From the IMG/VR virus record IMGVR_UViG_3300005805_009498, positions 8,447 to 72,446 of that record: a DNA stretch of 64,000 nucleotides, one strand, 5' to 3'. The translations under genes and the position numbers were made by a program. Shown here one piece after another: positions 30,276 through 55,941 of the stretch; position 1 is the first letter of the stretch, and each line of letters opens with the position of its first letter. The DNA comes from a virus (taxonomy: Duplodnaviria > Caudoviricetes). The notes below the pieces were generated by a model. It was given only the letters and a program-made list of their open reading frames with translations. It was not told where the DNA came from and did not search any database.

Positions 30276-31395
30276 TTTCGTTTATTATGGTTGCAGAAAT
30301 CCTGTTGCATTTTGGCTCTATTTGATTTATTCTTATCTTTATTTCTCCGCCTATCTTTAATCTATTATTCTGACCAAATTGACCCTTCATTGATATCGTG
30401 CTACTTATTCCGCTAAACTCTAATGTTACGTAAGGTCCCTTTATGGAAACAACCTTTGCGCTCATGGCTATATCGCTATTTTCCCTTTCTATGATGTTTG
30501 CCATCTCTTGCAGCCTAAGTATCATTTGTTCTGTTGGGTTTTGCGTGAGAATGAAATTCTTTGGAGGAATTATGTCCCTTACCCATATGTTTATTTTGTT
30601 GCCTGGTCTAACTTGTCCGTTCTTAAACAGGTTCATCGTAGATTCATCCATGTCGTTCATAGACAATAAACCTGTCATTATTTCGTTAAATTCTATGAAT
30701 ATTCCCGTTTGTATCGTACCCGTAACAGTTCCTTCGTACATAACAGACATATCAAAATTCTCAATGAGCTCTGGCATGATGTGTTCGATGTATCTCTTGT
30801 TGGAAACGATGAACGTATTGCTTTCGTTTATGTAAGAGTCCAACATCACCTTTACGGTTTTTCCTAGGAAAGATTCGAAGTTGATTATCTTGTTTGCACT
30901 CGCAAGTGAACCAGGAAGAAACGCTTCAAGACCCTGAATGTTAACAAAATATCCTCCTCGATTCTTCTCTATCACCTTTGCGTTGTATACCTTTGAAGGG
31001 TCCCTTAGTTGATCAAAGAATTCGTTTCTTAAAATTTCCTTTCCTGCTTCGTAAAAGCTTCCACGTAAACCAGAGTCCACGGATGTTATCTTTACATGAT
31101 AGGTATTATTATACGATATTGACGACGCGAATTCCTCCGTAGTCATGCCTATAGACTTTAAGAATTCCTTCTCCTTGTTCATTTTTACAGCAATGGACGG
31201 GGAGTGTGGGCCGGAGACAACCAAAAGATTGTCAGAAAGCATAGTTGAAGAATTCACCTGAAAAATCTGTCCGACCGACACAGTTTTGTTTACCTCTCCG
31301 TGAGAATTATTTGAAACCATATCGAAATACATGGCGTCATCTACTGGATGTTGAAAATTTTGTTGTATCGAAAAGACCCTGGGATTGAATGTCAT
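30259..31395 (-). CDS. rpsA: Ribosomal protein S1-like multi-S1-domain RNA-binding protein
   Basis: NAKVIEKNRGGYFVNIQGLEAFLPGSL matches S1 domain 2; EGTVTGTIQTGIFIEFNEIMTGLL matches domain 3; there are further degenerate OB repeats. Confidence 0.8.
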   Translation of the reverse strand: MTFNPRVFSIQQNFQHPVDDAMYFDMVSNNSHGEVNKTVSVGQIFQVNSSTMLSDNLLVVSGPHSPSIAVKMNKEKEFLKSIGMTTEEFASSISYNNTYHVKITSVDSGLRGSFYEAGKEILRNEFFDQLRDPSKVYNAKVIEKNRGGYFVNIQGLEAFLPGSLASANKIINFESFLGKTVKVMLDSYINESNTFIVSNKRYIEHIMPELIENFDMSVMYEGTVTGTIQTGIFIEFNEIMTGLLSMNDMDESTMNLFKNGQVRPGNKINIWVRDIIPPKNFILTQNPTEQMILRLQEMANIIERENSDIAMSAKVVSIKGPYVTLEFSGISSTISMKGQFGQNNRLKIGGEIKIRINQIEPKCNRISATIINENESTN

Positions 31396-34960: not shown

Positions 34961-36650
34961 CTTCTACTGTTGGTTTTTCAAACTTTATTTTCTCTGTTAT
35001 ATCATCTAAAACGCTAGGTTTTACAAACTGTATGTCGTTATCTACGTTTGTGACGACCGAAGGAAATCCGAAAGATATGGAACCCAAAGAGGTCTCTACT
35101 GTAGGTTTTTCCATGTTTACCGATTGGTTTATCACCGTATTCACTGTTGGCCGGGTCAAAGAAACCGTCTCTTCGGAATCCGTTTCAACGCTCGGTCTTG
35201 TTTGATCAACCCCTTCGGATATCTCAGTGTTCACCGTTGGAGAAACAAACTGAACATTGTTTTCTACGTTGTTGTTCACCGTGGGTTTTGTTAGATTGAT
35301 GGAGTCACCCAGCTCGGTTTCTACCGGTGGTCTGTTAAGGGTTATTTCAGATAGTTTATCCTCGACCTTTGGTTTTATGAAATCGATCCTTTCTGTTGCC
35401 ATATTTTCCTCTATTTTTATTCCTTCTCCGTTTTCCGCGTCGGCGGACATGTTAACGCTACCTGTTATCTCTCCGCTTTGATCGTTGGAATCCATGATTA
35501 CGTTACCGGTTAGTTCGGTTTCTACGCTTGGTCTTCCAAGATTAACGAACGATGGCTCTCCGGTTATTTTTGCCGAAGAGTTTATAGCGTCTATGATGTT
35601 CTTTGCAGATTCGGAAAATGTCTGTTGTTTTGAAATTCCGTCTAGTAATTGTTTTGTTATTTGATCCCTTTGGGCATAAGGAAGCGAAGCTATCCTGTCT
35701 CCACGGGTGAGGGTCAATCTGTTGATGAAATTTTGATCAATGTTCCTCTGGAGGTCCAACAACACCTGTTTATAGTTTGTTTCGTACGATCTAACAAACG
35801 GAGAAAGAAGGGATCGGTAGTTTATTACATCGTTTCGCTGGTTCAAATCCGCTCCGCTGCCGCCCTGTTTTATTACTAGGTCTCTTTTTATTTCCCCTAA
35901 CATGTAATTAAGCAGGGAATAGGAGTTTGTTTCTTGAACCCTATTCACTATGATGTTAAATTTAGGATTTATCTGCGTAGGAGCCTCAGAACTATCTAAT
36001 TGAGTCGGCATGGAATCAGAGAAATCAAATTCGCAGTCCATACATCGGAAAGCGACCGTTGAAACATGATTCAACCAATTTGTACCACTCTGTTGGGAGA
36101 AGGTTCTTAGATTCCTTGCCTCGCCTATCATGACGGTCATGTTGAACCTCTTTTTATCTATGGTCAGAAGCTCTCTAAAAAATCTTCTGTCTCTTGTTGC
36201 CTTTCTGTATAGATCGGCCAACGCGGTCATCCTTAGATCTACCGTTTCATAACAATCTAATGTTAGTGTTATAGGTTTGGACTCGGTTGTCCCTTCTTTG
36301 GTTTGATAGCCCCATTTCCAAAGTTCGTTAATCCCGGATATGCTTTTAAAAAACCAAGGAAAATCGTTTGATATTTTGTACAACATCCAAACAAATTCGT
36401 TAAGGACGTCGCCTCTTTCCTGTTCCCCCATCCTTCTAAGGTAGCTTATAGCGCTTTCGTCACGGGATTCGTTTAACAACAACCCTTGCATGACTTCATC
36501 GTTGGAAACCGGAGGTTCAAAATCAAAGAGTACCCTAAACGTAACAAACCCTGGGTCGTTATACTTAAGCTTCTGTTCGTTTTGAGAACCAGAAGACTCC
36601 GTAATGAACTTTCTTTCTAACCTTCCAACGCTTAATAGGCTACTGCTCAT
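34944..36650 (-). CDS. Putative baseplate/tail-tube-related protein with a C-terminal 15-aa repeat tail
   Basis: Baseplate operon context, a globular N-domain (NDPGFVTFRVLFDF), and a degenerate repeat array at the C-terminus. Confidence 0.5.
   Translation of the reverse strand: MSSSLLSVGRLERKFITESSGSQNEQKLKYNDPGFVTFRVLFDFEPPVSNDEVMQGLLLNESRDESAISYLRRMGEQERGDVLNEFVWMLYKISNDFPWFFKSISGINELWKWGYQTKEGTTESKPITLTLDCYETVDLRMTALADLYRKATRDRRFFRELLTIDKKRFNMTVMIGEARNLRTFSQQSGTNWLNHVSTVAFRCMDCEFDFSDSMPTQLDSSEAPTQINPKFNIIVNRVQETNSYSLLNYMLGEIKRDLVIKQGGSGADLNQRNDVINYRSLLSPFVRSYETNYKQVLLDLQRNIDQNFINRLTLTRGDRIASLPYAQRDQITKQLLDGISKQQTFSESAKNIIDAINSSAKITGEPSFVNLGRPSVETELTGNVIMDSNDQSGEITGSVNMSADAENGEGIKIEENMATERIDFIKPKVEDKLSEITLNRPPVETELGDSINLTKPTVNNNVENNVQFVSPTVNTEISEGVDQTRPSVETDSEETVSLTRPTVNTVINQSVNMEKPTVETSLGSISFGFPSVVTNVDNDIQFVKPSVLDDITEKIKFEKPTVEDGFRS
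34950..35535 (-). repeat. About 10-11 degenerate 14-15-aa protein repeats, [KR]P[ST]V[EN]x...[IV]x[FL]x
   Basis: RPPVETELGDSINLT / KPTVNNNVENNVQFV / SPTVNTEISEGVDQT / RPSVETDSEETVSLT / RPTVNTVINQSVNME / KPTVETSLGSISFG / FPSVVTNVDNDIQFV / KPSVLDDITEKIKFE / KPTVED. Confidence 0.85.
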
Positions 36651-37933
36651 CTATCCTGAAATTTTGTCACTAACGCCGCATTAGGAGTGTCTTCCGGATT
36701 TCGAATTGATAAATTTGAGCTTTGCGTGGATTCTTCCCAAACAAAATCATCAAATCCCAACTCCAGGAATCTCTCGTGTATCATCTTATCGTAGTATGAT
36801 GATATGTATCTCACTGCCCTCTGTATCTCTGGCCTTCTAGGTTCTTGGGTGTTGTTTCCTCCGCTGTTCATGTACTGGAGATAACACAGACGAGGTACAT
36901 GTATGAAGCGAGTCTTTAGAAAGCTTCTGACCACAAGCTCGTAATCATCTGCGATGTGTAGCTTAGGATTGTGCCCGCCTATGCTGAAATAAAACTCAGA
37001 TTCCCATGCCCTTATGTGGTTTGGGGCTGCAACAATATGACGTATCGTCTTTGGATTTATAGGAGCGGTTTCGCAAGTGTAAATGGCTCCGTTGTAATGA
37101 GCATCATAGTGTTTTCCGTATCCAAACCCCCAACCCGGTCCATAATTTACGCAACCACCAGTTTCAAAAACTTCCGAGGCATCCGTGTACAGAAACTTTG
37201 CATCTGGATATTCTTTGAACCCAGAAACCACATGATCAAGCGCCCAAAAGGTTAAAACGTCATCGTGATCCAGCTCAACAAGATATTTTCCTGTGCAAAG
37301 TCCTGCGGCGTTTCTCTTTACTTCTCCTATCATTCCGCTGGGTTTGTTGCCTTTAAAGACCTTTATTCTATGATCTTGCTGAGCAAGTTCACAAAGCATG
37401 TCATAGGTTTTATCCCCGTCGTTTGAGTCGTCATATAGAACCCATTCCCAGTTTTTATGTCTCTGCGCAATAAGCGAAGAAAAAACCCGGTATATTCTGT
37501 TTCCGGTTCTATAGGTTGGAGTAAAACAGCTAACCAACGGATCCGCATCGTTCTTTTCGGTGTTTAAACACGAATCTATGAAACATGTGTACGCCGCATC
37601 TCCTATTTCAGGGTTGTTCGAGTATTCATTAACATGAATCCATTTTCTTCTGATACTATAAGGAGCGTTTAGGAGCTGAGGATATTCCGAGGAGCTCTCT
37701 CCCGTAGTTAGAAAAACCGAGGGATTTATCTTGTTTATTATGGTATTTAGATCCTCTTGGTCTGTGAAGAAATGACATTCGAAATCGTGTGATTCCCAAT
37801 TTATGTAATCGCTCGATTTAATTTTTATGTCCTGTATTGAAACAGGATCCTTGGAAAATATTGCAACAACTGGTGTAATAGGCACGGTAATATCCTTTAA
37901 ATTGTTTATTGTCTTACTGAAGATGTGGTCCAT
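36647..37933 (-). CDS. Glycosyltransferase family 2 (GT-A) with an extra N-terminal domain
   Basis: PLVSCFTPTYR...WEWVLYDDSND...CTGKYLVELDHDD (DxD motif). Confidence 0.9.
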   Translation of the reverse strand: MDHIFSKTINNLKDITVPITPVVAIFSKDPVSIQDIKIKSSDYINWESHDFECHFFTDQEDLNTIINKINPSVFLTTGESSSEYPQLLNAPYSIRRKWIHVNEYSNNPEIGDAAYTCFIDSCLNTEKNDADPLVSCFTPTYRTGNRIYRVFSSLIAQRHKNWEWVLYDDSNDGDKTYDMLCELAQQDHRIKVFKGNKPSGMIGEVKRNAAGLCTGKYLVELDHDDVLTFWALDHVVSGFKEYPDAKFLYTDASEVFETGGCVNYGPGWGFGYGKHYDAHYNGAIYTCETAPINPKTIRHIVAAPNHIRAWESEFYFSIGGHNPKLHIADDYELVVRSFLKTRFIHVPRLCYLQYMNSGGNNTQEPRRPEIQRAVRYISSYYDKMIHERFLELGFDDFVWEESTQSSNLSIRNPEDTPNAALVTKFQDR

Positions 37934-44249: not shown

Positions 44250-44258
44250 CTATATATC
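44250..44258 (-). promoter_or_regulatory. Candidate phage promoter motif GATATATAG
   Basis: Sits between the terminator and the neck-gene ATG (3 nt upstream). Confidence 0.55.
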
Positions 44259-44261
44259 AAA

Positions 44262-44291
44262 AAATAAAGGGCGCTTTTGCGCCCTTTATTT
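44262..44291. terminator. Rho-independent terminator ending the 49553-44286 operon
   Basis: 13-bp stem aaataaagggcgc-tttt-gcgccctttattt, with a T-run on the minus strand. Confidence 0.9.
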
Positions 44292-44645
44292 TATCTTTAT
44301 CACTTGATCGACGTGTTTGTGTAGCCTCTTCAAAGAATCGTTGTCCAACAAAAAGGATTTCTTTATCTCTATTTCAAGAGACAACAGCTCCTTTTTTATG
44401 TTTTTCACCAGTTCAACCGATATTGAGGGGTTGATATACTGAATGCTACTTTTCTTTTTCTTTTTGGCAAACTCAAATTCTTCCTTTAATATTAGATTCA
44501 TAAGGTAAACAGAAGTGTTTTCCATCTGTCCGTCTGAATTCTTTTTCAATCTTAGAAGTATTTTGTTTACATCTATGACATACGGTTTGGATCCCGTAGC
44601 GTACTTCGGTGCGTTGGATTTCTCCTTAGAAAAAATCAGGTTCAT
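44286..44645 (-). CDS. Hypothetical protein
   Basis: 119 aa, 4-nt overlap with the upstream gene, ends in the terminator. Confidence 0.7.
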   Translation of the reverse strand: MNLIFSKEKSNAPKYATGSKPYVIDVNKILLRLKKNSDGQMENTSVYLMNLILKEEFEFAKKKKKSSIQYINPSISVELVKNIKKELLSLEIEIKKSFLLDNDSLKRLHKHVDQVIKIK

Positions 44646-45079
44646 TTACTTAATTTTTTACTTTCAATCTTTTCTTGAACTTCCATGTTTCTTTCCATTA
44701 TCTCTGATACCTTTTCCTCAGAATATCCTTTTTCCAAAAGATGCGCAGCGATAGATTCGTTTCTTAGATCCATGGATTTTCTAATGTTTTTTATGACTTC
44801 CTCGGTGTTTGATGCATGAAGTTGTTTTCCGTTCTGTATGTTATTCTTTATGTTTTCAAACCAATCCTTATATCCTAATCGATTCTTTAACTTTATGTAT
44901 CCGCTTTGTTTTAACAAGGATCTTCTAAACTTTCTATTAAACGTCATGTTTGAGAATAACGAAGTATCAAAATCATCCTGAATAGCTGGATCTGGCTGTT
45001 CAACGCTTAGATCGATCTCTTGGACCGGGTTTTCTTGTTCTATGTTGTTTTCTTCCAAAACCTGTGTTTCCTCGTTCAT
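44642..45079 (-). CDS. Hypothetical protein
   Basis: 145 aa, acidic N-terminus, coupled by 4-nt overlaps. Confidence 0.75.
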   Translation of the reverse strand: MNEETQVLEENNIEQENPVQEIDLSVEQPDPAIQDDFDTSLFSNMTFNRKFRRSLLKQSGYIKLKNRLGYKDWFENIKNNIQNGKQLHASNTEEVIKNIRKSMDLRNESIAAHLLEKGYSEEKVSEIMERNMEVQEKIESKKLSK

Positions 45080-45648
45080 TTCTTTTCTCCGTAAATTTTT
45101 GTTATTGAATTTTTTATGGCGTTATTTATTTCTTCCTTGGATACCGATTCTACTATTATATCTATCACCTCATTGACTGTAGACTCATCAAAGGTTTCGT
45201 TTATCATCTTAAAAAATGACTTTGTCGGTAAGTTTATTTCCAATTCTATGGGAACGATCTCTGTACTTTTTTTGGATCTTAATAGTAGATCGGACGAGAA
45301 CGTTCCTCTACTCTTTTTGCTCTGCGTTTCCGTTGGTTTTTCTTTGACTCTTTCCAGGCCTAACATTGCCATGTGTTGGTCAGGAATGGCTGATTCGCTT
45401 TTAACCCTTTTTTGTTTTAAAACCTCGGGACTCTCAATTGGGTACATCATGTCCAAATCTATTCTGCCTAAAGCGTTTTCCTTTGTTGGAATAACGATGA
45501 AGTCCTTTCCCAATTTTGACATCGGAATCCTTTGACCGTTGGAAAGAACAGCAAAATCCTCAAAAGTTTGACTGTCCTGTGTTAGTTCAACCGGTTCAAC
45601 ATTTCCTCTGTTTGATCCTATTATCCATTGTAAGTATTGATTATTCAT
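45076..45648 (-). CDS. Hypothetical protein
   Basis: 190 aa, overlaps both neighbours. Confidence 0.75.
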   Translation of the reverse strand: MNNQYLQWIIGSNRGNVEPVELTQDSQTFEDFAVLSNGQRIPMSKLGKDFIVIPTKENALGRIDLDMMYPIESPEVLKQKRVKSESAIPDQHMAMLGLERVKEKPTETQSKKSRGTFSSDLLLRSKKSTEIVPIELEINLPTKSFFKMINETFDESTVNEVIDIIVESVSKEEINNAIKNSITKIYGEKK

Positions 45649-45952
45649 CGAAGAGCGTTATTATATTTTCTTGATAAAACTTTTTTCTATCTTCCTGCAT
45701 TGTATCTATGGTGTTGGTTATCATTTCCTTAAGAAATTCTAGATTTTCTTTAAAGAATATGTTTACCCCTCTTTTAGAGACATCGTCGGAATTTGATGTG
45801 AAGTTTTTTGGAATCTCGTTTATTCTCCAAAACAATAGTGGACGACAATCCACAAATTTTATGTTTACCTCTTTCCATCCGTTTGGCTTTACGGTTATCG
45901 TTTCACAAAGATCCCATTCTATGTCGTTTTCAATCTTGTAGTCTATCTTCAT
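45641..45952 (-). CDS. Hypothetical protein
   Basis: 103 aa, overlaps both neighbours. Confidence 0.7.
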   Translation of the reverse strand: MKIDYKIENDIEWDLCETITVKPNGWKEVNIKFVDCRPLLFWRINEIPKNFTSNSDDVSKRGVNIFFKENLEFLKEMITNTIDTMQEDRKKFYQENIITLFDE

Positions 45953-46647
45953 GCGTTAATTCCCCCTATTACCCTTGGCCAATAAACATCTGGGGATATT
46001 CCCATCAACTGTATCACCAATTCCAATTCCTTATCGGCGTTAAGACCATTAGGAAGATTCCAATGATGGCTTTCTACCGGTTTCACGTGAGAGGCTTTAA
46101 CATCGTCTATTATAGCAAGTCTTTCGTAATTAAGTTCCCTTGCCCATAGATAATCTTGCGCCCACCCTGAATATGTTATGGTGAATGTTCCAAGAACACG
46201 TCTTAGCGCCGATGTCTTAAACAACGGACACATTATCTCAACATAGTTTGTGTATCTAATGAACTTGGTTTGATCGTTCAATACTAATGGAAAACTATAG
46301 TAACTGTCATGGGTTAACGATGGCTGACATATATTTAGATTATAATCCTGCGCAATCGTAAACAATCTAGCTATCTCGGTTGGATCAAGATGAACATCGT
46401 AATCAGGCATCCATATCCAATCATACTGATCGAGTATGTCGTACTTTTCGATGAACCTCTTGTATATGTGATGTTTGTACCCTTTGTCTTTCACATAATA
46501 CTTTGCTGTTCCATACACCTGAGGATCGTCGTTCCATTCGTCAGGGTTGAAATTTATAAGAGCAAGATCAAATCCGCATAGTTTAAAGTCTTTGTCGTTA
46601 TAAAATCCCCCCTCGGCGCTTGTAGCTATGACGAGGTTTCTTTTCAT
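45949..46647 (-). CDS. DUF707-family GT-A glycosyltransferase-like protein
   Basis: YDWIWMPDYD (DxD), ICQPSL, YVEIMCPLF and SGWAQDYLW match the DUF707 pattern. Confidence 0.8.
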   Translation of the reverse strand: MKRNLVIATSAEGGFYNDKDFKLCGFDLALINFNPDEWNDDPQVYGTAKYYVKDKGYKHHIYKRFIEKYDILDQYDWIWMPDYDVHLDPTEIARLFTIAQDYNLNICQPSLTHDSYYSFPLVLNDQTKFIRYTNYVEIMCPLFKTSALRRVLGTFTITYSGWAQDYLWARELNYERLAIIDDVKASHVKPVESHHWNLPNGLNADKELELVIQLMGISPDVYWPRVIGGINA

Positions 46648-46883
46648 TGCTGTGTTTGTTCTTCTTGCTGCTGTGTAGCGTTTACCGATTCTACAGAGCG
46701 ATCAGGTCTAAAAAACACTATTGCATCATAAATGATCTTGGCTTCTTGAATTGAATATGCGCCAAGTCTTGTTGCGTGTTCTGCCGCGTTTACGAGAACG
46801 TTTATCGCCTTAGCTGGATCGTCTATCACATACGCAGGTGTTTGTGGACGTTCTGGTTGCGGTGTTTGTTCGGTTGTTTCCAT
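46644..46883 (-). CDS. Small hypothetical protein
   Basis: 79 aa, TAATG and ATGA coupling; GAYSIQEAKIIYDAI helix. Confidence 0.7.
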   Translation of the reverse strand: METTEQTPQPERPQTPAYVIDDPAKAINVLVNAAEHATRLGAYSIQEAKIIYDAIVFFRPDRSVESVNATQQQEEQTQQ

Positions 46884-47731
46884 TATTCCTCTACGAAAAA
46901 TTTGTTAAATATGTCGATGTAATCTTGTGTTTTAAGAACCGAAAAATCTTCTATAGATTCCATGTGTTCGTTAAAACGCTTTGCTTGTATTGATATTCCA
47001 GTATTTGGATCAAAGATCGGCTTAGTTATCTTTAGCTCTATATCATTATTTGAATTTGGATTTTCCTTTCTCAATTCTTGTACCAGAGAGAAATGTCTCT
47101 CGTAATAATGAGTATTATCAGAGCAATGATAGTAGGTTCCAACTTCGAGTTCGTTGTATTTTTCCTTTAGAAGAAGGTACATCGATTGATAAACAACAGA
47201 AAAGAACGGCGCATCGTATTGAAGACCATAGAATATGTCGTTTGATCTCATCTGTACCTTCATGTTTAGCTTATTATCTCTTATCCAAAAGTTCATATAC
47301 ATTGTACAAACGAAATCCTTAACACCTTGACGTTGATACGCCGGTGTATTAAAAACCATTATGGCTTGACGCGTAGATTTGTCGTTAATAAGGGCATCAT
47401 AGGCCCACTTGAACTGGCTTTTGTTTTGTCTTGAATTTATGATGTATCCGTAATTGGAATTAACACGGTTAAACTCATCTACCAGACTTTTCCAAAAGCT
47501 AGAAAATTCGTTGATTCTATTTATGTTTGTATCTTCACACAGATACCACCATAATTCTCCTATGAAATACTTCCAATTAAAAGCCTTGCTATCGAAGTTC
47601 ATGAGAGGGTATAACGGATCGAACTCAAGGGTGGTAAGATACTCTTCTACGACCTTTAATCCTCTTGGTGAATCTTCGGTTTCCATCCTTGAAAGGAGAG
47701 ACAGAACTTCGCTGTTTAGGGTTTTTTTCAT
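46883..47731 (-). CDS. Thymidylate-synthase-superfamily enzyme of the cytosine-specific type (dCMP hydroxymethylase-like, T4 gp42-like)
   Basis: E59, catalytic C142 (DFVCT), MRSND165, and D173 at the position of E. coli Asn177 / T4 gp42 Asp179; HYY210. Confidence 0.85.
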   Translation of the reverse strand: MKKTLNSEVLSLLSRMETEDSPRGLKVVEEYLTTLEFDPLYPLMNFDSKAFNWKYFIGELWWYLCEDTNINRINEFSSFWKSLVDEFNRVNSNYGYIINSRQNKSQFKWAYDALINDKSTRQAIMVFNTPAYQRQGVKDFVCTMYMNFWIRDNKLNMKVQMRSNDIFYGLQYDAPFFSVVYQSMYLLLKEKYNELEVGTYYHCSDNTHYYERHFSLVQELRKENPNSNNDIELKITKPIFDPNTGISIQAKRFNEHMESIEDFSVLKTQDYIDIFNKFFVEE

Positions 47732-47769
47732 GATTGATTTATACGTCCTTTAAACTTGCTTGGTTATAC

Positions 47770-48822
47770 CTAAAATAAAGCGATGATTTTTGTTTTTCTC
47801 GTTGGTTTTCCTGTTTCAAAATCATACATGTATGAGTGTCTGGATAGATGTACGGATCCAGGTTTTTCCATACACTGTTCCGCGTATTTTTCAGGGTCCA
47901 TCACATACCATTCATCTGGCCACCTAATGACCATATAATCATGGTCGTAAGAGAAATCGCTAATAAGTCTATTGAATTCCTTTACCGCATCTGATCTTTG
48001 TTGTCTTGTTCCGAAAAAAGGAGATCCTTTATACCATCCGGTTTTTGGGATCTTCCTTTCTTCGTGTTCTATGGGAAGAAGAGAAACCAACCAGACATTT
48101 TCTATTCCTCTATTGTCTTTAAGATCCTTTGCAAACTCTGCATATCTTTTAGCAAGATCAAGCAACGACGCCATTGGATCTTCCTGTCTAAAAATATGAT
48201 GCCTAACGTCTATGTTACCCATGTAAAGGATCACGTTTTTGGTTCCTTCAGGGAAATTAAATTGATCCTTTTTGTTTAAAAACCCGTGTAAAGTTTGGCC
48301 ATCGTTCCTGCTAATGTTTGCCCCTGGTTCATAGATAGAGACAGCATGACTGTCCCCATAGATGAAGGTTTTACTGTTAAGAACAACATCAATTCGAGGA
48401 ATGGACTCTGATATGGACTTATATCGTGAGGCGTCAAGTTCAACCCACTCTTCGCATGCGCCCTTTGCTCTTGAATTTATGAATTCACCGATATCAGGCA
48501 TATCGTGATTCAATATGAATATTTTTCCTTTAAATGATTCTAGCCTTTTTACCCTGTCTGCTACTTCCTTTGTTGCTCCTCCAAATAAGTTGAAAGTTCC
48601 TTGAAACTCCATAGGAAGAAGTATCAACCAAACATCGTAATTATGAATGTTATCGTCCTTAGTAAGGACATCGCATTCTATTTCAAGGCTGTTTAATTGA
48701 CAGCGTATTAGATATGGCCAGGAGGATTTGTGGGATTCTTTTTTTCTGCTATATGACGTAACAACGTCGTCTATGGCAATCCTTTTTCCCCTTAGATCAT
48801 CAAGAGCATCATATATGTTCAT
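47770..48822 (-). CDS. Fusion of a T4 beta-glucosyltransferase-like N-terminal domain and an SGNH hydrolase/acyltransferase domain
   Basis: N-half KRIAI...YLI...CDVLTK...NYDVWLIL...FNLFGG...FKGKIFILNHD parallels T4 BGT (KIAII...YLF...VDIISLK...DYDRLIVV...INFFGG...YKSKIYYLFTD). C-half has GDSH, G175, GNID and SVH blocks. Confidence 0.65.
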   Translation of the reverse strand: MNIYDALDDLRGKRIAIDDVVTSYSRKKESHKSSWPYLIRCQLNSLEIECDVLTKDDNIHNYDVWLILLPMEFQGTFNLFGGATKEVADRVKRLESFKGKIFILNHDMPDIGEFINSRAKGACEEWVELDASRYKSISESIPRIDVVLNSKTFIYGDSHAVSIYEPGANISRNDGQTLHGFLNKKDQFNFPEGTKNVILYMGNIDVRHHIFRQEDPMASLLDLAKRYAEFAKDLKDNRGIENVWLVSLLPIEHEERKIPKTGWYKGSPFFGTRQQRSDAVKEFNRLISDFSYDHDYMVIRWPDEWYVMDPEKYAEQCMEKPGSVHLSRHSYMYDFETGKPTRKTKIIALF

Positions 48823-48824
48823 CT

Positions 48825-49106
48825 TTATTTCTTCTCGTTATGATAGTTCTCTAAACCTTGGATGTATGCGACAGCATCTAAAAGATTATCCCTCTTATGC
48901 TGATAGCTCTCTCTGGAAAATTTAAGGGCTATGAGGGCCTTAAACATGTGATCCGCGCTAAGGTTCATCCCTGTCATACCGTTAAATATCATTGCGGCCC
49001 TTTCCATACCTTCGCTAAATGGGCCATATTGACGATCGGCTTCTTCCGATCGATTGTTAACTATTTCTTCTGCTTGTGTTAATATGCTCATAGATTTATT
49101 ATACAT
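48825..49106 (-). CDS. DUF6378-like all-helical protein (dNTP diphosphohydrolase-like)
   Basis: RQYGPFSE...LIALKFSRE...RDNLLDAVAYI pattern. Confidence 0.7.
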   Translation of the reverse strand: MYNKSMSILTQAEEIVNNRSEEADRQYGPFSEGMERAAMIFNGMTGMNLSADHMFKALIALKFSRESYQHKRDNLLDAVAYIQGLENYHNEKK

Positions 49107-49121
49107 TGTTAGATAGAATTG

Positions 49122-49553
49122 TTATTTATCATAGCCGTTTTCGTTTATCCATCGCAAATACTTTTTTAGTTCCTTGTCCTCTACCGTTATGGAATATACG
49201 CCCTGTTGAAATATCTTCCATGAATCCGAGGCGTACTTTCCCACTCCAGGAAGGGATTCAACGGAATTTCCATCCCAATTTAACCATTTTTCAGAGAATT
49301 TTTTCCACATCTTTGCCCTTCTATTGTAAAATCCTAGAGGCCTTATTATGGATATGATTTCCTCATCCGTTGCAGAACAAAGAGATTTTGCATCAGGAAA
49401 ACGAGAGAAGAACTGGTTTCTTACCTTATCCACTTGTTTGTACCCGGTCTGATTAAGCATCATACAAACCAGGAGCATCTTCCATGGGTCGTCTTGATAG
49501 ATTTCTTGACGATATTTAAAGGGACTGGTAGGGGGCTTTGTCGTTTTTTTCAT
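49122..49553 (-). CDS. MBD4-like HhH-GPD mismatch DNA glycosylase (143 aa; real start at 49553)
   Basis: DPWKMLLVCMMLNQT...RPLGFYNRRAK...LPGVGKYASDSWKIF...EDKELKKY closely follows the MBD4 catalytic domain; the catalytic Asp is present. Confidence 0.9.
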   Translation of the reverse strand: MKKTTKPPTSPFKYRQEIYQDDPWKMLLVCMMLNQTGYKQVDKVRNQFFSRFPDAKSLCSATDEEIISIIRPLGFYNRRAKMWKKFSEKWLNWDGNSVESLPGVGKYASDSWKIFQQGVYSITVEDKELKKYLRWINENGYDK

Positions 49554-49559
49554 GATTCT

Positions 49560-49579
49560 AATATATAGAAAAACTATAT
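49560..49579. promoter_or_regulatory. Divergent promoter region with AATATATAG and an inverted ATATAG/CTATAT pair
   Basis: 29-nt gap between divergent starts at 49553 (-) and 49583 (+). Confidence 0.5.
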
Positions 49580-49582
49580 CTT

Positions 49583-49900
49583 GTGAAAACTTTTTTACAG
49601 ATAAAAAGCATAAACGAATCGAAAGAAGGATACCAGGCATTAAAAGATCTAAATAGATTACATAAGTTAGAGCTTGAGATACAGGATATCCAAAGAACGG
49701 TTGTGGAACTATTGGATAAGGCAAAGAAATATAAGATTGGAAGCAAGGAAAGAGAAAAGTTGGAAGAAAGAATGTTTAAGTTTATCGAAGAGAAGAAAAG
49801 CATTCAGGAAGAGATAGATTACGAAATTAGAATTTTTAAGCGCTCCATTGCTTTAATTGACACGGATGGACACTTAGACGTAGAAGATTTTTTTAATTAA
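49583..49900 (+). CDS. Small coiled-coil protein, putative internal head protein
   Basis: GTG start; N-terminus MKTFLQIKSINES resembles the T4 capsid-targeting sequence. Confidence 0.65.
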   Translation: MKTFLQIKSINESKEGYQALKDLNRLHKLELEIQDIQRTVVELLDKAKKYKIGSKEREKLEERMFKFIEEKKSIQEEIDYEIRIFKRSIALIDTDGHLDVEDFFN

Positions 49901-50639: not shown

Positions 50640-52475
50640 TTAGACTATACCTGCTGCAGGTGTTTCAACCCAGAATGTGTAGTATTGAGCTTCTGGATAG
50701 AATCCAGCGTCAACAAGAGCGTAACGGCTCTTAACAGCAATCTTAGGTGACATTGTTCCTTCAGCGATAGTGCTGATCGACTCCGCCATGAGGTAAGGCA
50801 TGAACTTGATGCCTGGCTCGATGTCAGCGCCCTTACGACCAACGAGGATACGTGTATCGTTCCATGTCATGTTAGGATCAACGTAAACTGTCATTCCGAA
50901 CAGCGTTCCTGCTGGATACAGCTGGCCGCTTGACTGGTTTAGGGTGTTATCGAACGGAGCAAGAGAGAATCCCTTAACGATGTTGAGGGCCGAAAGCACC
51001 TGAGCATTTGTGACAACGAAGTTCGCTGGGCCACGACGACCACGTGTGTGGATCAGGTTCGAAGCCGCATGGATCTTGCTGACGATGCGCTGTTGTGCTG
51101 TCGAGAGGTTCTCGAAGTTTCCGTAATCTGCGTAAGCTGGGATGTTGTTTGTCCATGAAAGCGCAGTGTTTGACTTACCAATGTACGATGACGTTGTTGC
51201 TGATACTGTCTGTGTTGGATCAAGCGAAAGGTTAAGTGTGAAACCTTGCGTTTGCTTAACATCGTAGTTGTTCTGCCATCCGAGTGCGAACGCGCGAGAA
51301 AGGATGTGCTTGTTGATCGACTGTGAAACTTCGTTAACAAGTACGCCTTCTGCCATAGCGAGGATATCGATACCAAACTGGCGGTTCATGTCCTGGATTT
51401 GCTCAGTTGTTACGCTGATCGTTACCTGGAATGTTCCAGCTTGTACGTTCTTTGTGAACGTTTGGATACCCATTGCACGTGGATATGTTTCTTCTCCAGT
51501 TCCACGGCTCATAGGATCGTATGGCTTTGTTCCGTCTGTGAACGGTCCGTTCCATGTGTTTGTATCATCTGCACCAGCTCCAGAGAAACCATAGATGTGA
51601 TTCTCAAGGGCAGAAACATAACCTGGACGGAAAGGAGCGCCTGTTGTTCCATTTCCTGAAGCGTACGCTGTATCGTTTGGTTGACCCGAAGTTTCACCTA
51701 CGATAGAAGAATACGTAGTGCCAGAACCAACGCCAAACGCATCAGCGATAGTTACTGTGTTTGGATTTGTGCTAGCCTGATAATCAAGCGCAGAATCAAG
51801 CACACCAGTTGAAACAACCTTGAAAATTAGATCGCCCGTTACGAACGACTTACCAACATAAACAAGCTTTGCTGCGTCGCATTCTGCAAGTGTTACCTCA
51901 TAGTCTGTTGTCTTTGAAGTATCAAGCGATGCCTCAAGAGGAACAGCATAGTATGTAGATCCAACAGTTAGCTGTCCAGTATCTCCATCGTATACCTCAG
52001 TTGCAGGCATGCTAATCATGAGCGGCTGTGTCTTGTTTGCATCTTGACCTGATGTTGCGTAATCAAGCTTACCACCTGCATAGATGTAATCTAGATAAGG
52101 AAGGATTCCCGTCGGTCCTGGCATAGGTATAACAGAGACGATGTCGAAACCGACTGTCTTTGCAGCAACCTGGATTGCCAAAGGAAGAAGCGATGGGAAC
52201 TTATCACCTGATCCCTGATACGATGTGTTGTAAAAGTTAGCAGGCGTTACCATTGCTGTACCGAGGTTAACCGGTCCTTGACCAGGAACGTTAACAAGTT
52301 GAGCAAGACCAGTTCCCTGGAATGACTCGTTCATTGTGAAGCTTTCGTTCATCTGGTGGTAGTGGCAATACTTAGAGAGCCAGTTCTTCTTGTAACCTTC
52401 CTTGACTCCAACGGACTCAAGCATAGGCGACCACTCGTTGATGATCTGTGCTTCGTTCAAAAGCTGTAGATTCAT
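50640..52475 (-). CDS. gp23: Major capsid protein, T4 gp23-like
   Basis: AAKTVGFDIVSVIPMPGPTG, FQVTISVTTEQIQDM, EVSQSINKHIL, PGIKFMPY and KIAVKSRYALV motifs; strong codon bias; downstream of the protease. Confidence 0.92.
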   Translation of the reverse strand: MNLQLLNEAQIINEWSPMLESVGVKEGYKKNWLSKYCHYHQMNESFTMNESFQGTGLAQLVNVPGQGPVNLGTAMVTPANFYNTSYQGSGDKFPSLLPLAIQVAAKTVGFDIVSVIPMPGPTGILPYLDYIYAGGKLDYATSGQDANKTQPLMISMPATEVYDGDTGQLTVGSTYYAVPLEASLDTSKTTDYEVTLAECDAAKLVYVGKSFVTGDLIFKVVSTGVLDSALDYQASTNPNTVTIADAFGVGSGTTYSSIVGETSGQPNDTAYASGNGTTGAPFRPGYVSALENHIYGFSGAGADDTNTWNGPFTDGTKPYDPMSRGTGEETYPRAMGIQTFTKNVQAGTFQVTISVTTEQIQDMNRQFGIDILAMAEGVLVNEVSQSINKHILSRAFALGWQNNYDVKQTQGFTLNLSLDPTQTVSATTSSYIGKSNTALSWTNNIPAYADYGNFENLSTAQQRIVSKIHAASNLIHTRGRRGPANFVVTNAQVLSALNIVKGFSLAPFDNTLNQSSGQLYPAGTLFGMTVYVDPNMTWNDTRILVGRKGADIEPGIKFMPYLMAESISTIAEGTMSPKIAVKSRYALVDAGFYPEAQYYTFWVETPAAGIV

Positions 52476-52495: not shown

Positions 52496-54367
52496 TTATA
52501 ATTTACCAATTAGACTCTTCTTAACCTGTTCGATATAAGAAGAATTGTTACCCTTCACGGACTCAATTGTGCTGTAAGGATTTACAGATTCGTTGAGGGT
52601 TTCCGTGACGTTTCCATTGAAGTTGACAACGTCAGGCCTTGTGGCCCAGAAGTTCCTTATCTGATAAGGCGTATCAAGCTTTATGTATTGAGCCTGGGAC
52701 GCGATACGACGACGGCTTTCCTCTGAGAGGGATTCCCAAATAGGAGCGTACTCCGTTGGCATTTCCTTTATCCACTTTGGAAGACTTGCCTTCTTCCTCG
52801 ATGCAGAAAGCGAAGATTCCCAAATGTTCACAACGTCCTTCTCCGTAAAGAATATCGAGTTACTCATTGCCTCATTGACTATCTCTTTTTCAGTCAGCGG
52901 CAAGTCTATGAACTTCTTCCTTCTTTCTGGTGAAAGCAGTCTTAAGAACGGGAACTTTGCTGATTCATTCAACGTCTGAACCTTCTCTTTTTTGGCTTCA
53001 GCTATCAAATGATTTACCTTTTCGGAAAGATTATCACCGGCCAACATTGATGCCTGTTTTTCTTTCCTCTTCTTAACCATTTTCTTTTCTTTTTCATTTA
53101 TAGATTCAACAACGTAATCCGAATATTGTATGGCCTTGTCTGTCTGTTCAGCAACATATTCGGTGTATCCTATAGAATGGTTTACCGCTTCTGCAAGATA
53201 ATCGTTGTGCTTGATAGAAAGATCCAGATTTTCTCCTAGGTATTCGGAATAACCTATAGAATCGTTTAGATTCTCTGCCAGATAGTTTCCGTATTCTATT
53301 GAATCTTCGACCTTTTCTGCCAGATAATTACTGTAATTTATGTTTTGGTTTACCTTCTCTGAAATGTAGTTAGAATAAGAGATGTTCTTATCTAGATTTT
53401 CAGCGAGATAGTTTTGATAGCTGTCAGAAAGATTCAATCTCTCGGCTATGTAGTTTGAATAATCTATTGTGTCCGTCACCTTTCTCTTGAGCTTATTGAC
53501 AGAGCTAATATTCGTGTCAACATTCTCTGAAAGATAGTTACAATAGTTTATTGTTCCATTGAGCTTCTCCGCAAGATAGTTTGTGTACTCTATCAACTTC
53601 GCCATGTTGTCGTCGTTAGAAGAAGCTCTGTTAACTCTCTTTATAAGACCCGAGAGTTTCTTCTCGAGTAATTCGATCTCTCTCTTAACAAGCTTTGAAT
53701 ACTCGTTGAGCTCAGAGACCTTTACCGTATCATCCTTTGGATTTGAGCCCATAACTTTGTTATTTTTTTGTTGTTTTGTTTTTTCAATATCGCTAAATAA
53801 TGAGCCCGGATCATACATCTCCGAAACATCATATATGTGTATGTTTGATTTTGCAGAAAAACCTAGAGATTCGTTCACCAGTGAAAGCTGAGCGTTTTCA
53901 AATCCTGGGTCTGCGACTAGATCGTAAGTAAATATTTTCTTAAGTTTGACCTTTTTATCTGAGCCAACCGTTCCTGCCGCCCTTGATGAAATCGAAAGAG
54001 GAACTCCCGCTTCAACCAATCGTTTTGCGGTGATTCCTGCATCTGTGTTTAAGAGTCTTACCTTGCCCTTAAGACACCTTGTTGACTTATCGTATTCAAG
54101 ATTTTCTATTATGTGAGATACCTTTTGCAGAGAAACATCAAACTTCTCTGGATGGTCCAATTCTCCCATAAGTCTCTTTGACTTTATCTTATCGCGAAGA
54201 TAATCGAGGTGTGGAAGGTATTCGTTTTCCTCGTATATCCTATCGTTGTTATTTACAACTCCAAACTGGGCAAATATTCCCTCTAGAACTATATCTCCGT
54301 TGCCTTCGTTCTTGGATTCGAGGATTGAACTGGAATTTTCCAGTATTAAAAGAACCTTTTGATCCAT
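52496..54367 (-). CDS. gp21: Prohead protease (gp21/peptidase U9-like) fused to a scaffold-like coiled-coil region
   Basis: NNNDRIY, MGELDHP (His), SISSRAAG (Ser) and TYDLVADPGFENA, followed by 14-aa repeats. Confidence 0.92.
   Translation of the reverse strand: MDQKVLLILENSSSILESKNEGNGDIVLEGIFAQFGVVNNNDRIYEENEYLPHLDYLRDKIKSKRLMGELDHPEKFDVSLQKVSHIIENLEYDKSTRCLKGKVRLLNTDAGITAKRLVEAGVPLSISSRAAGTVGSDKKVKLKKIFTYDLVADPGFENAQLSLVNESLGFSAKSNIHIYDVSEMYDPGSLFSDIEKTKQQKNNKVMGSNPKDDTVKVSELNEYSKLVKREIELLEKKLSGLIKRVNRASSNDDNMAKLIEYTNYLAEKLNGTINYCNYLSENVDTNISSVNKLKRKVTDTIDYSNYIAERLNLSDSYQNYLAENLDKNISYSNYISEKVNQNINYSNYLAEKVEDSIEYGNYLAENLNDSIGYSEYLGENLDLSIKHNDYLAEAVNHSIGYTEYVAEQTDKAIQYSDYVVESINEKEKKMVKKRKEKQASMLAGDNLSEKVNHLIAEAKKEKVQTLNESAKFPFLRLLSPERRKKFIDLPLTEKEIVNEAMSNSIFFTEKDVVNIWESSLSASRKKASLPKWIKEMPTEYAPIWESLSEESRRRIASQAQYIKLDTPYQIRNFWATRPDVVNFNGNVTETLNESVNPYSTIESVKGNNSSYIEQVKKSLIGKL
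53090..53593 (-). repeat. Twelve tandem 14-aa repeats, consensus IxYxNYLAExLxxS
   Basis: Run from IEYTNYLAEKLNGT to IQYSDYVVESINEK; one copy is degenerate; 504 nt. Confidence 0.9.
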
Positions 54368-55299: not shown

Positions 55300-55941
55300 T
55301 TATATGTGAACTGCTAAAAGTTCAGGAACTTCAATCCATTCGAACATTTTTCCAAGCCTATCGTAGGTGTAACCGTCATTATAATAACCTTGTTCTCCCG
55401 AGAATGTGTCCCAACCGCATGCGATCATAGCTTCCCTTCTAACAACCACCTGTTGCGTATCGATGTTTTGAAACACCGGTGGTATACCATTTATGACCTG
55501 TGGAGCAGAACCTAAGTGCTGAGGAAGGGGCCCTAGATGTAGAATCTTACATATTGAAAAAGCTTTATCGGGATTAGATTCCAACGCCTCTACGTTTCTT
55601 TCCACAAAGTGGGAAAACAGGACGTTATCATCGTCCATGTGAACCAAATACTTTATACTTAAATCGGATTCTATGAAGTTTCTAAGAACGTATTCTCTAA
55701 CTCCACCGCCGTAGGAGTTGGTGTTTTCTCCTGTACACACATAGATGATATACGGATCCTGAAGAGATTCAACGTATTGCTTTACGTGTTCTTCTTCCGG
55801 TCCGTCCGAACATATTATGTGTAACATCGATCCGGCATATGATTGGGATCTGACAGAACGAACCCCACGATCTATTATGTTTATGTCCCTCTTGTATGTC
55901 GGGGTTATTATTGCAACCTTTGGTAGCTGTGGATTTATCAT
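55300..55941 (-). CDS. Glycosyltransferase family 2 (GT-A)
   Basis: KVAIITPTYKR...IICSDG...YLVHMDDDN. Confidence 0.88.
   Translation of the reverse strand: MINPQLPKVAIITPTYKRDINIIDRGVRSVRSQSYAGSMLHIICSDGPEEEHVKQYVESLQDPYIIYVCTGENTNSYGGGVREYVLRNFIESDLSIKYLVHMDDDNVLFSHFVERNVEALESNPDKAFSICKILHLGPLPQHLGSAPQVINGIPPVFQNIDTQQVVVRREAMIACGWDTFSGEQGYYNDGYTYDRLGKMFEWIEVPELLAVHI

Follow-up and report, generated by a model that had tools for sequence, protein, structure and literature searches.

The ten-gene cassette g1-g10 (44,286-49,553, minus strand) is best explained as a module that makes 5-hydroxymethylcytosine (5hmC), decorates it through g3 and carries a repair glycosylase alongside, a reading to which we assign a probability of about 55%. 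It lies in a window of 64,000 nucleotides, the whole stretch of DNA analysed here, from an uncultured jumbo T4-like phage whose genome is 24% complete in hand. Four steps are envisaged; what g4 makes and what g3 and g6 act on are our predictions. In the first, g4 would turn dCMP into 5-hydroxymethyl-dCMP, as its sequence signature strongly suggests, and this nucleotide would be phosphorylated by a kinase not found in the sequence in hand and then incorporated in place of C. In the second, g3, judging from its fold, conservation and gene linkage, would engage 5hmC DNA via a lobe resembling the acceptor lobe of T4 beta-glucosyltransferase (BGT), with its SGNH lobe (Ser158, His325 and the oxyanion residues Gly180 and Asn203) performing ester chemistry on the 5-CH2OH group; O-acylation appears likeliest, either as the final mark or as an activation for another group. 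More tentatively, g6, a DUF707 protein with a DxD motif, might in a third step attach a sugar to the base or its adduct. In the fourth, homology and a parallel in phage Xp12 suggest that g1 would excise a 5-hydroxymethyluracil-type base opposite G, derived from deaminated modified cytosine, and so initiate base-excision repair of the phage genome. The cassette would then be a variant of cytosine hypermodification in which an SGNH-fold enzyme takes the decorating role and a repair glycosylase stands beside it.

All ten tightly coupled minus-strand genes described in the initial annotation are present, and their junctions, at which neighbors either overlap by 1-8 nt or stand 2-38 nt apart, show that the coupling is genuine; g4, g5 and g6 overlap by 1 and 4 nt and are translationally coupled. 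At the upstream end 29 bp separate the g1 ATG (49,553) from a plus-strand GTG (49,583), and immediately upstream of g1 the minus strand bears a sigma70-like match, TTCACA-16-TATATT (49,560-49,587), agreeing at 10 of 12 positions. The divergent promoter region proposed earlier has a candidate site, but promoter-like matches are about as common there as in shuffled sequence (26 versus 24.2), and we therefore regard the site at 49,587-49,560 as a plausible cassette promoter. The strong terminator expected at the other end is readily recognized as a hairpin (44,261-44,292) of 14 pairs, six of them GC, with a 4-nt loop; flanked by an A-run on one side and a T-run on the other, it should be able to terminate transcription in both directions. 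Past this hairpin an ATATATA motif (44,251-44,257) precedes a gp13-like late gene; the flanking late genes are preceded by this exact motif, but no copy of it lies upstream of the cassette on the cassette's own strand. The GC content of the cassette is 0.372 versus 0.406 and 0.395 in the flanks. The predicted conservation of the neighborhood in related phages is borne out, as the cassette is kept as a unit with its gene order in the relatives L003 and L005 and, at 46-49% identity, in the 260-kb L075. The cassette lies amid the late structural region, between capsid and neck/baseplate genes, and the best explanation is that it represents a DNA-modification module with transcription of its own embedded there.

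MBD4 removes T, U and 5hmU opposite G, the bases left when 5mC, C and 5hmC, respectively, are deaminated. The first gene of the cassette, g1 (49,122-49,553, minus strand; 143 aa), encodes an HhH-GPD DNA glycosylase of this type (Pfam HhH-GPD, 43 bits), whose top PDB match is the MBD4 glycosylase domain (E 1.1e-23, residues 5-139) and which falls far under the Nth and MutY equivalog cut-offs. The match to the human and mouse domains (PDB 1ngn, 4e9e and others; E 1e-23) is nearly full length and includes the HhH and the catalytic Asp (Asp110, invariant in alignment A8), although the phage-encoded protein is stand-alone and has no methyl-CpG-binding domain. Its closest cultured relatives belong to the Xp12 group, in which the glycosylase gene lies two genes from a cytosine-type thymidylate synthase (TS) homologue, in a run that also codes for dCMP deaminase and DHFR. 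In Xanthomonas phage Xp12 itself, which has a 5-methylcytosine genome, the glycosylase gp61 shares 35% identity with g1, retains the catalytic Asp and occupies one gene run with the TS homologue gp59. Xp12 differs in being a 64-kb siphovirus, in the Asn at position 143 of its TS, which goes with a methyl product, and in having no g3, DUF707 or DUF6378 gene in the run. It nevertheless provides an independent parallel for the deamination-repair idea of the initial annotation. The proposed tie between glycosylase and cytosine modification, which Xp12 favors, is weakened by the many MBD4-like phage contigs with no visible cytosine-modification gene: about 25 viral contigs have such a gene but show no TS homologue, g3 or C5-methyltransferase, five such partial contigs have neither TS homologue nor C5-methyltransferase, and the neighbors include genes for peptide deformylase, a DruA-like protein and an exoribonuclease. 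This scatter among unrelated neighbors, together with the absence of an MBD4-like gene from the g3-bearing Aeromonas phages, raises the possibility that g1 does not repair the phage's own modified base and instead acts as a generic U:G/T:G glycosylase, counters cytosine-deaminase defences of the host or works on host DNA. We consider this rather doubtful, given that g1 heads the cassette, that it occurs beside g3 in two clades (adjoining it in the second, L006, L009 and L033), that the Xp12 group has its relative in one run with a cytosine-type TS homologue and that the known MBD4 substrates are those expected from deaminated cytosines.

The cassette had also been described as self-contained, covering each step of a pathway including dCTP depletion. 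This is not supported, as no dCTPase or dNMP kinase (homologues of T4 gp56 and gp1) was found in the 24% of the genome in hand, the DUF6378 protein g2 has no detectable likeness to MazG-type NTPases, and two further GT2 genes lie beyond the cassette among structural genes (36,647-37,933 and 55,300-55,941). The g2 gene (48,825-49,106, minus strand; 88-93 aa; Pfam DUF6378, 37.7 bits) probably starts at Met6 (49,091), because its homologues and the Atlas record start there. It is very strongly conserved, with 80% identity where g3 has only 51%, adjoins g3 in L075 and L078 too, and probably assists g3 or g4. The g6 product (45,949-46,647, minus strand), a putative GT-A-type glycosyltransferase, scores 26.9 bits against the Pfam DUF707 cut-off of 24.1, and its DxD motif in alignment A6 comprises an invariant D84 and nearly invariant P81 and D82; its Atlas neighbors are DUF707 and viral 'glycosyltransferase' clusters. 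A GT-A-like gene near a TS homologue on a viral contig recalls the TS-associated clusters of DNA glycosyltransferases described in the available part of a preprint (bioRxiv 10.1101/2023.12.21.572611), with the difference that the candidate here, with a putative DNA role, is a DUF707 protein, a family that this part of the preprint does not mention. However, the substrate glycosylated by g6 may not be DNA, because distant DUF707 homologues occur in glycan or polysaccharide-type clusters that also include genes for GT2, GT25, sulfotransferase and pyruvyl transferase enzymes, and because of the GT2 genes in the structural region of the window.

The remaining genes, g5 (46,644-46,883; 79 aa), g7 (45,641-45,952; 103 aa), g8 (45,076-45,648; 190 aa), g9 (44,642-45,079; 145 aa) and g10 (44,286-44,645; 119 aa), all on the minus strand, have no match in Pfam, PHROGs or NCBIfam and are tied to the pathway by position alone. 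The clade-specific g5 has no relationship to the small ORFs found after TS genes elsewhere, in other clades. In L003 and L005 it is 94-98% identical over residues 17-68, and g8, g9 and g10 show 46-51%, 56-64% and 63-69% identity, respectively; g7 (50-60% identity) keeps its position in close relatives only. Such fast-evolving, family-less products (g7-g10), the flanking capsid and neck/baseplate genes, the two GT2 genes, the glycan clusters of the distant DUF707 homologues and the MBD4-like genes on contigs devoid of modification genes would all fit a composite cassette, in which g4, and perhaps g3, alone concern DNA, g6 and the GT2 enzymes add sugars to virion proteins or to some other glycan, g1 is a general mismatch glycosylase, and g5 and g7-g10 encode small proteins with unrelated accessory or anti-defence roles. 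We regard this as unlikely: it is hard to reconcile with the translational coupling of g4-g5-g6, with retention of the entire gene order at the divergence of L075, with the TS-associated GT-A cluster class noted above, and with boundaries formed by a promoter-like site and a terminator in place of the late-gene ATATATA.

The decorating role in the four-step pathway falls to g3 (47,770-48,822, minus strand), for which an AF2 model (pLDDT 90) displays a BGT-like N-lobe (residues 1-147) and a C-lobe (148-350) with a clear SGNH fold (Z 13.6; Foldseek E 1e-4), although the protein scores 19.1 against the Pfam Lipase_GDSL cut-off of 23.6. When the N-lobe was folded alone, residues 1-139 of T4 BGT, the DNA-binding lobe of that enzyme, ranked first among 48,161 chains, with a weak Z of 6.7 that has TIR and receiver-type folds within 1 unit. 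Foldseek places BGT second (E 9e-3), hhalign pairs NLFGG with NFFGG at a probability of 32%, and the structural matches further include AGT and the DNA glycosyltransferase of phage HY126. Across 28 diverse members S158, H159, G180, G202, N203, D205, S323 and H325 are invariant, block V of the SGNH domain reads S-V-H, not D-x-x-H, and several invariant Arg, Lys and His residues are located past the SGNH blocks. Family members do not conserve D107, the equivalent of BGT Asp100 that was earlier put forward as catalytic. The family (329 clusters at E <= 1e-30) is linked in distant phages to gp42-type TS and known DNA-hypermodification proteins. Of the TS homologues located no more than 8 kb from a g3 relative, 16/16 have the D/D/D signature of gp42, as do those of G003 and G004, both complete genomes, and of L080; the TS near the g3 relative in L078 is a canonical ThyA. 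One relative combines an FkbM methyltransferase, HMUDK_hel (the helical domain of 5-hmdU DNA kinase) and g3 in a single chain, and genes for the same three adjoin in L078. The partners vary by clade, being kinase-like proteins, PLP and radical-SAM enzymes (in marine clades) or DUF707, which leaves the exact step of g3 ambiguous; fam1 and fam2, partner families of other clades, have no Pfam or PDB match and are absent from G000 and G001.

The HMUDK_hel, PLP and radical-SAM associations are reminiscent of the thymidine hypermodification clusters of phages M6, ViI, PaMx11, SP10 and PhiW-14, which code for 5-hmdU DNA kinase and aGPT-Pplase and in which a group is likewise transferred post-replicatively onto a 5-hydroxymethylpyrimidine in DNA; here the base would be cytosine, and the cassette has neither kinase nor aGPT-Pplase by Pfam. 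Relatives of g3 also occur in Aeromonas phages 44RR, 31 and 25, which have genes 42 and 56 and no glucosyltransferase (PMC2993671). In 44RR2.8t, gp42-positive and devoid of glucosyltransferase, the N-terminal 340 residues of ORF233c (phrog_17781) are homologous to g3 at 35% identity, but about 450 additional C-terminal residues have a faint HMUDK_hel match (E 0.0036), a Na+/solute symporter gene adjoins, and the genome has no MBD4-like, DUF6378 or DUF707 gene. That symporter, the generic Rossmann-like range of the N-lobe match and the carbohydrate, lipid or peptidoglycan ester substrates of SGNH enzymes of known function, all the structural neighbors included, could suggest an esterase or acyltransferase acting on a small molecule or glycan (for instance a nucleotide sugar, an acetylated precursor or host surface polysaccharide), with the TS linkage mere general clustering of metabolic genes. 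We find this improbable in view of the one-chain fusion, the uniform gp42-type linkage, the top rank of BGT alongside two other phage DNA glycosyltransferases, the invariant basic residues outside the SGNH blocks and the absence of a tail-fibre or further Pfam-recognised domain from the g3 proteins examined.

The first step of the preferred pathway depends on g4 (46,883-47,731, minus strand; Pfam Thymidylat_synt, 79.6 bits), which lies far under the ThyA equivalog cut-offs and has T4 dCMP hydroxymethylase (gp42) as its best PDB match (E 2.6e-20). In alignment A3 its DFVCT and MRSND...YD motifs correspond to L143D, a retained D169 and N177D, which distinguish hydroxymethylases from methylases and 5hodCMP synthases under rules derived from a small number of tested enzymes (PMC13326640). 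This full gp42 signature strongly predicts a 5-hydroxymethyl-dCMP synthase. The gene assignments of the initial annotation all hold, with its TS homologue narrowed to this type. A 5-hydroxy-dCMP synthase is disfavored by the retained D169, since every tested enzyme of that kind carries Asn there (D169N; PMC13326640); RB69 gp48 reads RSQN in the same alignment. Residue rules from so few enzymes leave a very slim chance of another C5 product, the 5-methyl-dCMP of Xp12 or the 5-hydroxy-dCMP of RB69, in which case the downstream chemistry would depart from a 5hmC pathway, but Asp143 is shared with T4 gp42 where Xp12 gp59 has Asn, D169 speaks against the hydroxy product, and gp42 is the top PDB match.

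The arabinosyl-5-hydroxycytosine pathway of RB69 and DLP3 similarly clusters a dCMP-acting TS homologue with glycosyltransferases in T4-like phages (PMC13326640), but its synthases are D169N where g4 keeps Asp169, and the present cassette has no NDP-arabinose genes. The glucosyl-hydroxymethylcytosine pathway of T4 comprises gp42, gp56, gp1 and the alpha- and beta-glucosyltransferases. With it the cassette shares the gp42 fold of g4, down to the catalytic Cys and Glu and the complete trio of specificity residues, and a g3 N-lobe structurally nearest the DNA-binding lobe of BGT, with an aligned NxFGG loop. It departs from T4 in showing no gp56 or gp1 homologue in the sequence in hand, in the non-conserved equivalent of BGT Asp100, in the SGNH domain that stands where BGT has its UDP-glucose-binding lobe, in the added glycosylase and DUF6378 protein, and in its location within the late structural region.

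The ten minus-strand genes at 44286-49553 (g1-g10) very probably form a DNA-modification unit based on 5hmC; its central enzyme, the two-lobed product of g3, comes from an uncharacterised family. The initial annotation had described ten tightly coupled ORFs here, and all are present, with neighbours overlapping by 1-8 nt or sitting 2-38 nt apart. Its assignment of a cytosine-type thymidylate synthase (TS) to this cassette was also borne out: g4 matches PF00303 at 79.6 bits (Pfam cut-off 24.3), and its nearest PDB entry is T4 gp42 (dCMP hydroxymethylase; E 2.6e-20), whose full residue signature it carries. In the g4 alignment the catalytic Cys C142 (E. coli C146) is invariant, GELWWY aligns with T4 RELEWY and covers the catalytic Glu (T4 E60), GLQYD stands against T4 GFRND with an Asp at the E. 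coli N177 position, and KDFVC against T4 SDFMC with an acidic residue at the L143 position, where Xp12 gp59 has Asn. According to a recent study, dCMP-specific enzymes are recognised by N177D, an acidic residue at the L143 position admits water and denotes a hydroxymethyl rather than a methyl product, and the flavin-dependent 5-hydroxy-dCMP synthases, a recent discovery, are told apart by D169N (PMC13326640, 2026). As g4, which reads KDFVCT and MRSND...YD, matches T4 gp42 at all three diagnostic positions, its product is predicted to be 5hmdCMP. A 5-hydroxy-dCMP synthase of the RB69 gp48 type was rejected because D169 is kept, with RSND in g4 as against RSQN in gp48. A canonical ThyA was likewise rejected, given the Asp at 177 and a best NCBIfam ThyA score of 57 bits where the cut-off is set at 327; g4 falls well under every ThyA equivalog cut-off of that collection. 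The cassette pairs a gp42-type synthase not with a GT-B glucosyltransferase but, in that place, with a member of the large and uncharacterised g3 family.

The AF2 model of g3 (pLDDT 90; N-lobe modelled separately, pLDDT 82) comprises two lobes, for which a fusion of the N-terminal part of T4 beta-glucosyltransferase (BGT) to an SGNH domain had been proposed. The SGNH half of this proposal is clear: residues 148-350 adopt the SGNH fold (VIA: Z 13.6, rmsd 3.4, 176 aligned residues; Foldseek E 1.1e-4), and blocks I-III (G156-D-S158-H, G180 and G202-N203-I-D205) as well as block V (S323-V-H325, which keeps the His and has Ser for the Asp of DxxH) are invariant in 28 sequences, with the Pfam Lipase_GDSL match at 19.1 bits lying under the gathering cut-off of 23.6. 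The BGT half is likely only. The best of 48,161 chains for the N-lobe is T4 BGT residues 1-139 (Z 6.7, 107 aligned residues), tied with generic folds, while T4 alpha-glucosyltransferase ranks 8th; in Foldseek BGT comes second (E 9e-3) in a list that also includes the DNA glycosyltransferase of phage HY126, and hhalign pairs the invariant NLFGG of g3 with NFFGG of BGT at a probability of just 32%. Since the scores against BGT lie within the range of generic Rossmann-like folds, we rate the relationship no higher than likely. The two proteins also differ: where BGT has its C-terminal UDP-glucose-binding Rossmann lobe, g3 has the SGNH fold, and the position aligned with the catalytic Asp100 of BGT, D107, is D, Q, E, S or P depending on the family member. 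Because this equivalent is unconserved, the N-lobe would serve DNA binding rather than catalysis.

A search of 5.8 billion proteins yielded 212 relatives of g3 lacking any Pfam domain or name, and a profile run against 1.84 billion representatives placed 329 clusters at 50% identity in the family (E <= 1e-30); in PHROGs, g3 itself matched solely families without assigned function. The C-terminus of g3 (47770-47790) consists of a basic stretch followed by ALF, the only ORF ending of this kind in the window, and the [AS]LF end is common to the window clade and the 50%-identity clade. This tail may be a sliding-clamp docking tail. Elsewhere in the cassette the final residues are LFDE in g7 and FFVEE in g4.

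Conservation of the neighbourhood, suggested as a check in related jumbo phages, was found: the order from the glycosylase gene g1 to the gp13-like gene is intact in the loci of two close relatives (L003 and L005) and of a 260-kb relative (L075; 46-49% identity). In the last of these the capsid gene and the cassette are separated by an RmlC-like dTDP-sugar isomerase gene (4407-5048), which is missing there in the window. Beyond these relatives g3 recurs in several distinct settings. In marine T4-like contigs it is part of a run encoding DNA polymerase, a PRA-PH protein, TS, fam2, fam1, a PLP enzyme, g3, a radical-SAM/SPASM enzyme and UvsX. Here fam1 and fam2 denote two proteins of about 390 and 330 aa which accompany g3 in the marine and 180-kb clades (L017, 4913-7053; L006, 9005-11192); their mean column identity is 69% and 59%, while g3 is only ~33% identical. 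They have no match in Pfam, PHROGs or the PDB, and were not found by tblastn and profile searches in the window, the Aeromonas locus or the close relatives. Elsewhere, a single chain of 981 aa (P0295) combines an FkbM methyltransferase, a 5-hmdU-DNA-kinase helical domain (43 bits) and g3, and at another locus (L078, 10784-12519) FkbM, HMUDK_hel and g3 proteins are separate neighbours, along with DUF6378 and inositol-1-phosphate synthase. TS homologues within 8 kb of g3 relatives carry the D/D/D signature in 16 of 16 cases, as do those of locus L080 and of two complete genomes (G003 and G004); L078, which has a canonical ThyA close by, is an exception. On account of these links across clades, we place g3 in the hypermodification of a 5-hydroxymethylpyrimidine in DNA; the links do not fix the exact step.

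Among cultured phages, g3 relatives are found in 38 Aeromonas records and in Stenotrophomonas and Tenacibaculum records, including phages 44RR, 31 and 25, for which a review gives genes 42 and 56 and no glucosyltransferase (PMC2993671). In Aeromonas phage 44RR2.8t (L035, 4420-8400) the homologue forms the N-terminus of the 795-aa ORF233c, straight after a phage-encoded Na+/solute symporter. The g3 family would fill this long-standing gap, and since these phages are cultured its chemistry is directly accessible to nucleoside LC-MS.

The gene g1 encodes an HhH-GPD protein (PF00730, 43.1 bits) which, as initially annotated, is MBD4-like: the match to the MBD4 glycosylase domain (PDB 1ngn, E 1.1e-23) covers residues 5-139 of 143, and GVGKYASD110S aligns with MBD4 GIGKYGNDS, with the catalytic D110 invariant in the g1 alignment. 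It scores well under the NCBIfam cut-offs for Nth and MutY and is devoid of their Fe-S cluster loop, having two Cys only and a chain that stops before the loop position. In a second clade (L006, L009 and L033) g1 adjoins g3. Its nearest relatives in cultured phages belong to the Xp12 group, whose DNA contains 5mC in place of C. In Xanthomonas phage Xp12 the MBD4-like glycosylase is gp61, annotated as hypothetical. It shares one run (L077, 3908-6986) with a HAD hydrolase, with a cytosine-type TS homologue located two genes further downstream, and with dCMP deaminase and DHFR, which come after the TS gene. This glycosylase/TS gene run offers an independent parallel, which supports a role for g1 in removing the deaminated modified base. 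The built-in deamination repair ascribed to the operon is thereby rendered plausible, as is g1 being the dedicated repair glycosylase of the cassette, but several observations speak against exclusivity: the gene occurs amid unrelated neighbours in ~25 other viral contigs, five partial contigs with MBD4-like genes show no TS homologue and no C5-methyltransferase, and no MBD4-like gene was found in the g3-bearing Aeromonas phages.

The presence of a DUF6378-like protein was upheld, g2 (48825-49091) scoring 37.7 bits against PF19905 (cut-off 27.1). It is strongly conserved, being 74-94% identical among the hundred-odd closest environmental homologues listed and showing 80% identity where g3 has 51%, and it adjoins g3 in three clades. 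In G003 and G004 a DUF6378 gene sits beside genes for dUTPase, dCMP deaminase, a gp42-type TS and a PLP enzyme; the domain was not found in 44RR and is mentioned in the literature on other phages. A dCTP-depleting role for g2 is unsupported, because no likeness of g2 to MazG-type enzymes was found: hhalign of the g2 alignment against the PRA-PH protein of the marine locus L017 gave a probability of 0.2%, and neither g2 nor the DUF6378 profile has a usable PDB match. Nor was the gp56-type dCTPase (PF08761) or PRA-PH (PF01503) found in the source genome, which is 24% complete, in its relative G001, or in G003 and G004. At the locus of G001 (L076, 1-3344) a split family-B DNA polymerase is represented by an N-terminal 460-aa piece between a trimeric-type dUTPase and ribonucleotide reductase.

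The claim that g6 is a DUF707 glycosyltransferase held in part. It passes the Pfam cut-off (PF05212, 26.9 bits versus 24.1, with the match confined to profile positions 91-155) and its DxD motif is conserved, D84 being invariant and P81 and D82 nearly so. Neither g6 nor the DUF707 profile has a usable PDB sequence match; more distant homologues map to glycan-type clusters on one large viral contig and one Rhizobium replicon. The motif and these homologues support a glycosyltransferase role for g6, whose acceptor may or may not be DNA. TS-linked GT-A clusters glycosylating 5hmC are documented in a preprint (bioRxiv 10.1101/2023.12.21.572611). The pairing of g3 with DUF707 in the window clade is, by gene content, a different variant from the other g3 settings. 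The remaining genes, g5 and g7-g10, have no match in Pfam, PHROGs or NCBIfam and were not found outside the clade. The 79-aa g5 was rejected as a counterpart of the small ORFs following TS genes in RB69 and in marine clades, there being no similarity. PHROGs gave no match for g1 or g6, and NCBIfam nothing further on the cassette except the sub-threshold Nth, MutY and ThyA matches.

A self-contained pathway, as first envisaged, is not borne out, given the missing PF08761 and PF01503 in a genome 24% complete and two minus-strand GT2-family glycosyltransferase genes outside the cassette (36647-37933 and 55300-55941), among baseplate genes and beside the lysozyme gene. These may serve virion-protein glycosylation or be part of a DNA sugar pathway.

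To our knowledge, phage cytosine hypermodification takes the form of sugars on 5hmC or 5hoC. We tentatively propose, at odds of roughly one in four for the reading as a whole, that g3 is the first DNA base O-acyltransferase, that the fate of the ester depends on the clade and that the MBD4-type glycosylase is dedicated to repair. The borrowed BGT-type base-flipping lobe would hand 5hmC to the SGNH Ser-His centre of g3, and the product would be 5-acyloxymethylcytosine. The window clade would retain the ester or let DUF707 swap it for a sugar; other clades would use it as a leaving group, which would take over the part that a DNA kinase plays in thymidine pathways. The thymidine-type 5-HMUDK/aGPT-Pplase clusters differ in possessing kinase and pyrophosphorylase domains, for which g1-g10 have no Pfam match, and HMUDK_hel is seen only in relatives. 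Under the same proposal, phages with fully C5-substituted cytosine would encode their own MBD4-type glycosylase for the deaminated base. A new cytosine adduct, if real, would matter for the evasion of restriction and CRISPR as well as for enzymatic 5hmC tools, and an MBD4-type glycosylase tied to C5-substituted cytosine in the window and Xp12 would, if true, be a new case of a virus mending the particular damage to which its own modified base gives rise.

The contig around the window is a 72.4-kb viral IMG/VR contig (CheckV completeness 24%), and as relatives sharing its genes reach 260-284 kb the source is a jumbo phage. By megablast the cassette had no match among GenBank phages. The structural genes of the window are T4-like and encode a gp23-type capsid protein (50640-52475), a prohead protease (52496-54367), a lysozyme, a baseplate injector OB-domain (Phage_base_V) protein, a gp25-like protein and, directly downstream of the cassette, a gp13-like neck protein. 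The strong terminator reported at the end of the operon was recovered as a hairpin (44261-44292) of 14 pairs with an A-run and a T-run on its flanks. Before g1, the supposed promoter has a sigma70-like match at 10 of 12 positions, but such matches are no commoner here than in shuffles. The heptamer ATATATA occurs ten times in the window, nine of them on the minus strand, and in seven cases (18980, 27182, 31430, 44251, 54403, 57995 and 60296, all minus) it lies within short spacers, 7-40 nt upstream of minus-strand late-gene starts; this is probably the late-promoter motif of the source phage. With 5.4 copies expected, the T4 late-promoter motif TATAAATA turns up a single time, and T4's late-promoter rule was therefore rejected for this phage. 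The ATATATA at 44251 is immediately past the hairpin, ahead of the gp13-like gene, and the leader of the cassette holds the motif in reverse reading only. Considered jointly, the junctions, hairpin, promoter match and ATATATA placement give the cassette the look of a transcription unit of its own inside the late region. Its GC content is 0.372, against ~0.40 outside. Also in the late region, Pfam recognises an S1 RNA-binding domain (E 1.4e-10) in a 378-aa protein (30259-31395, minus).
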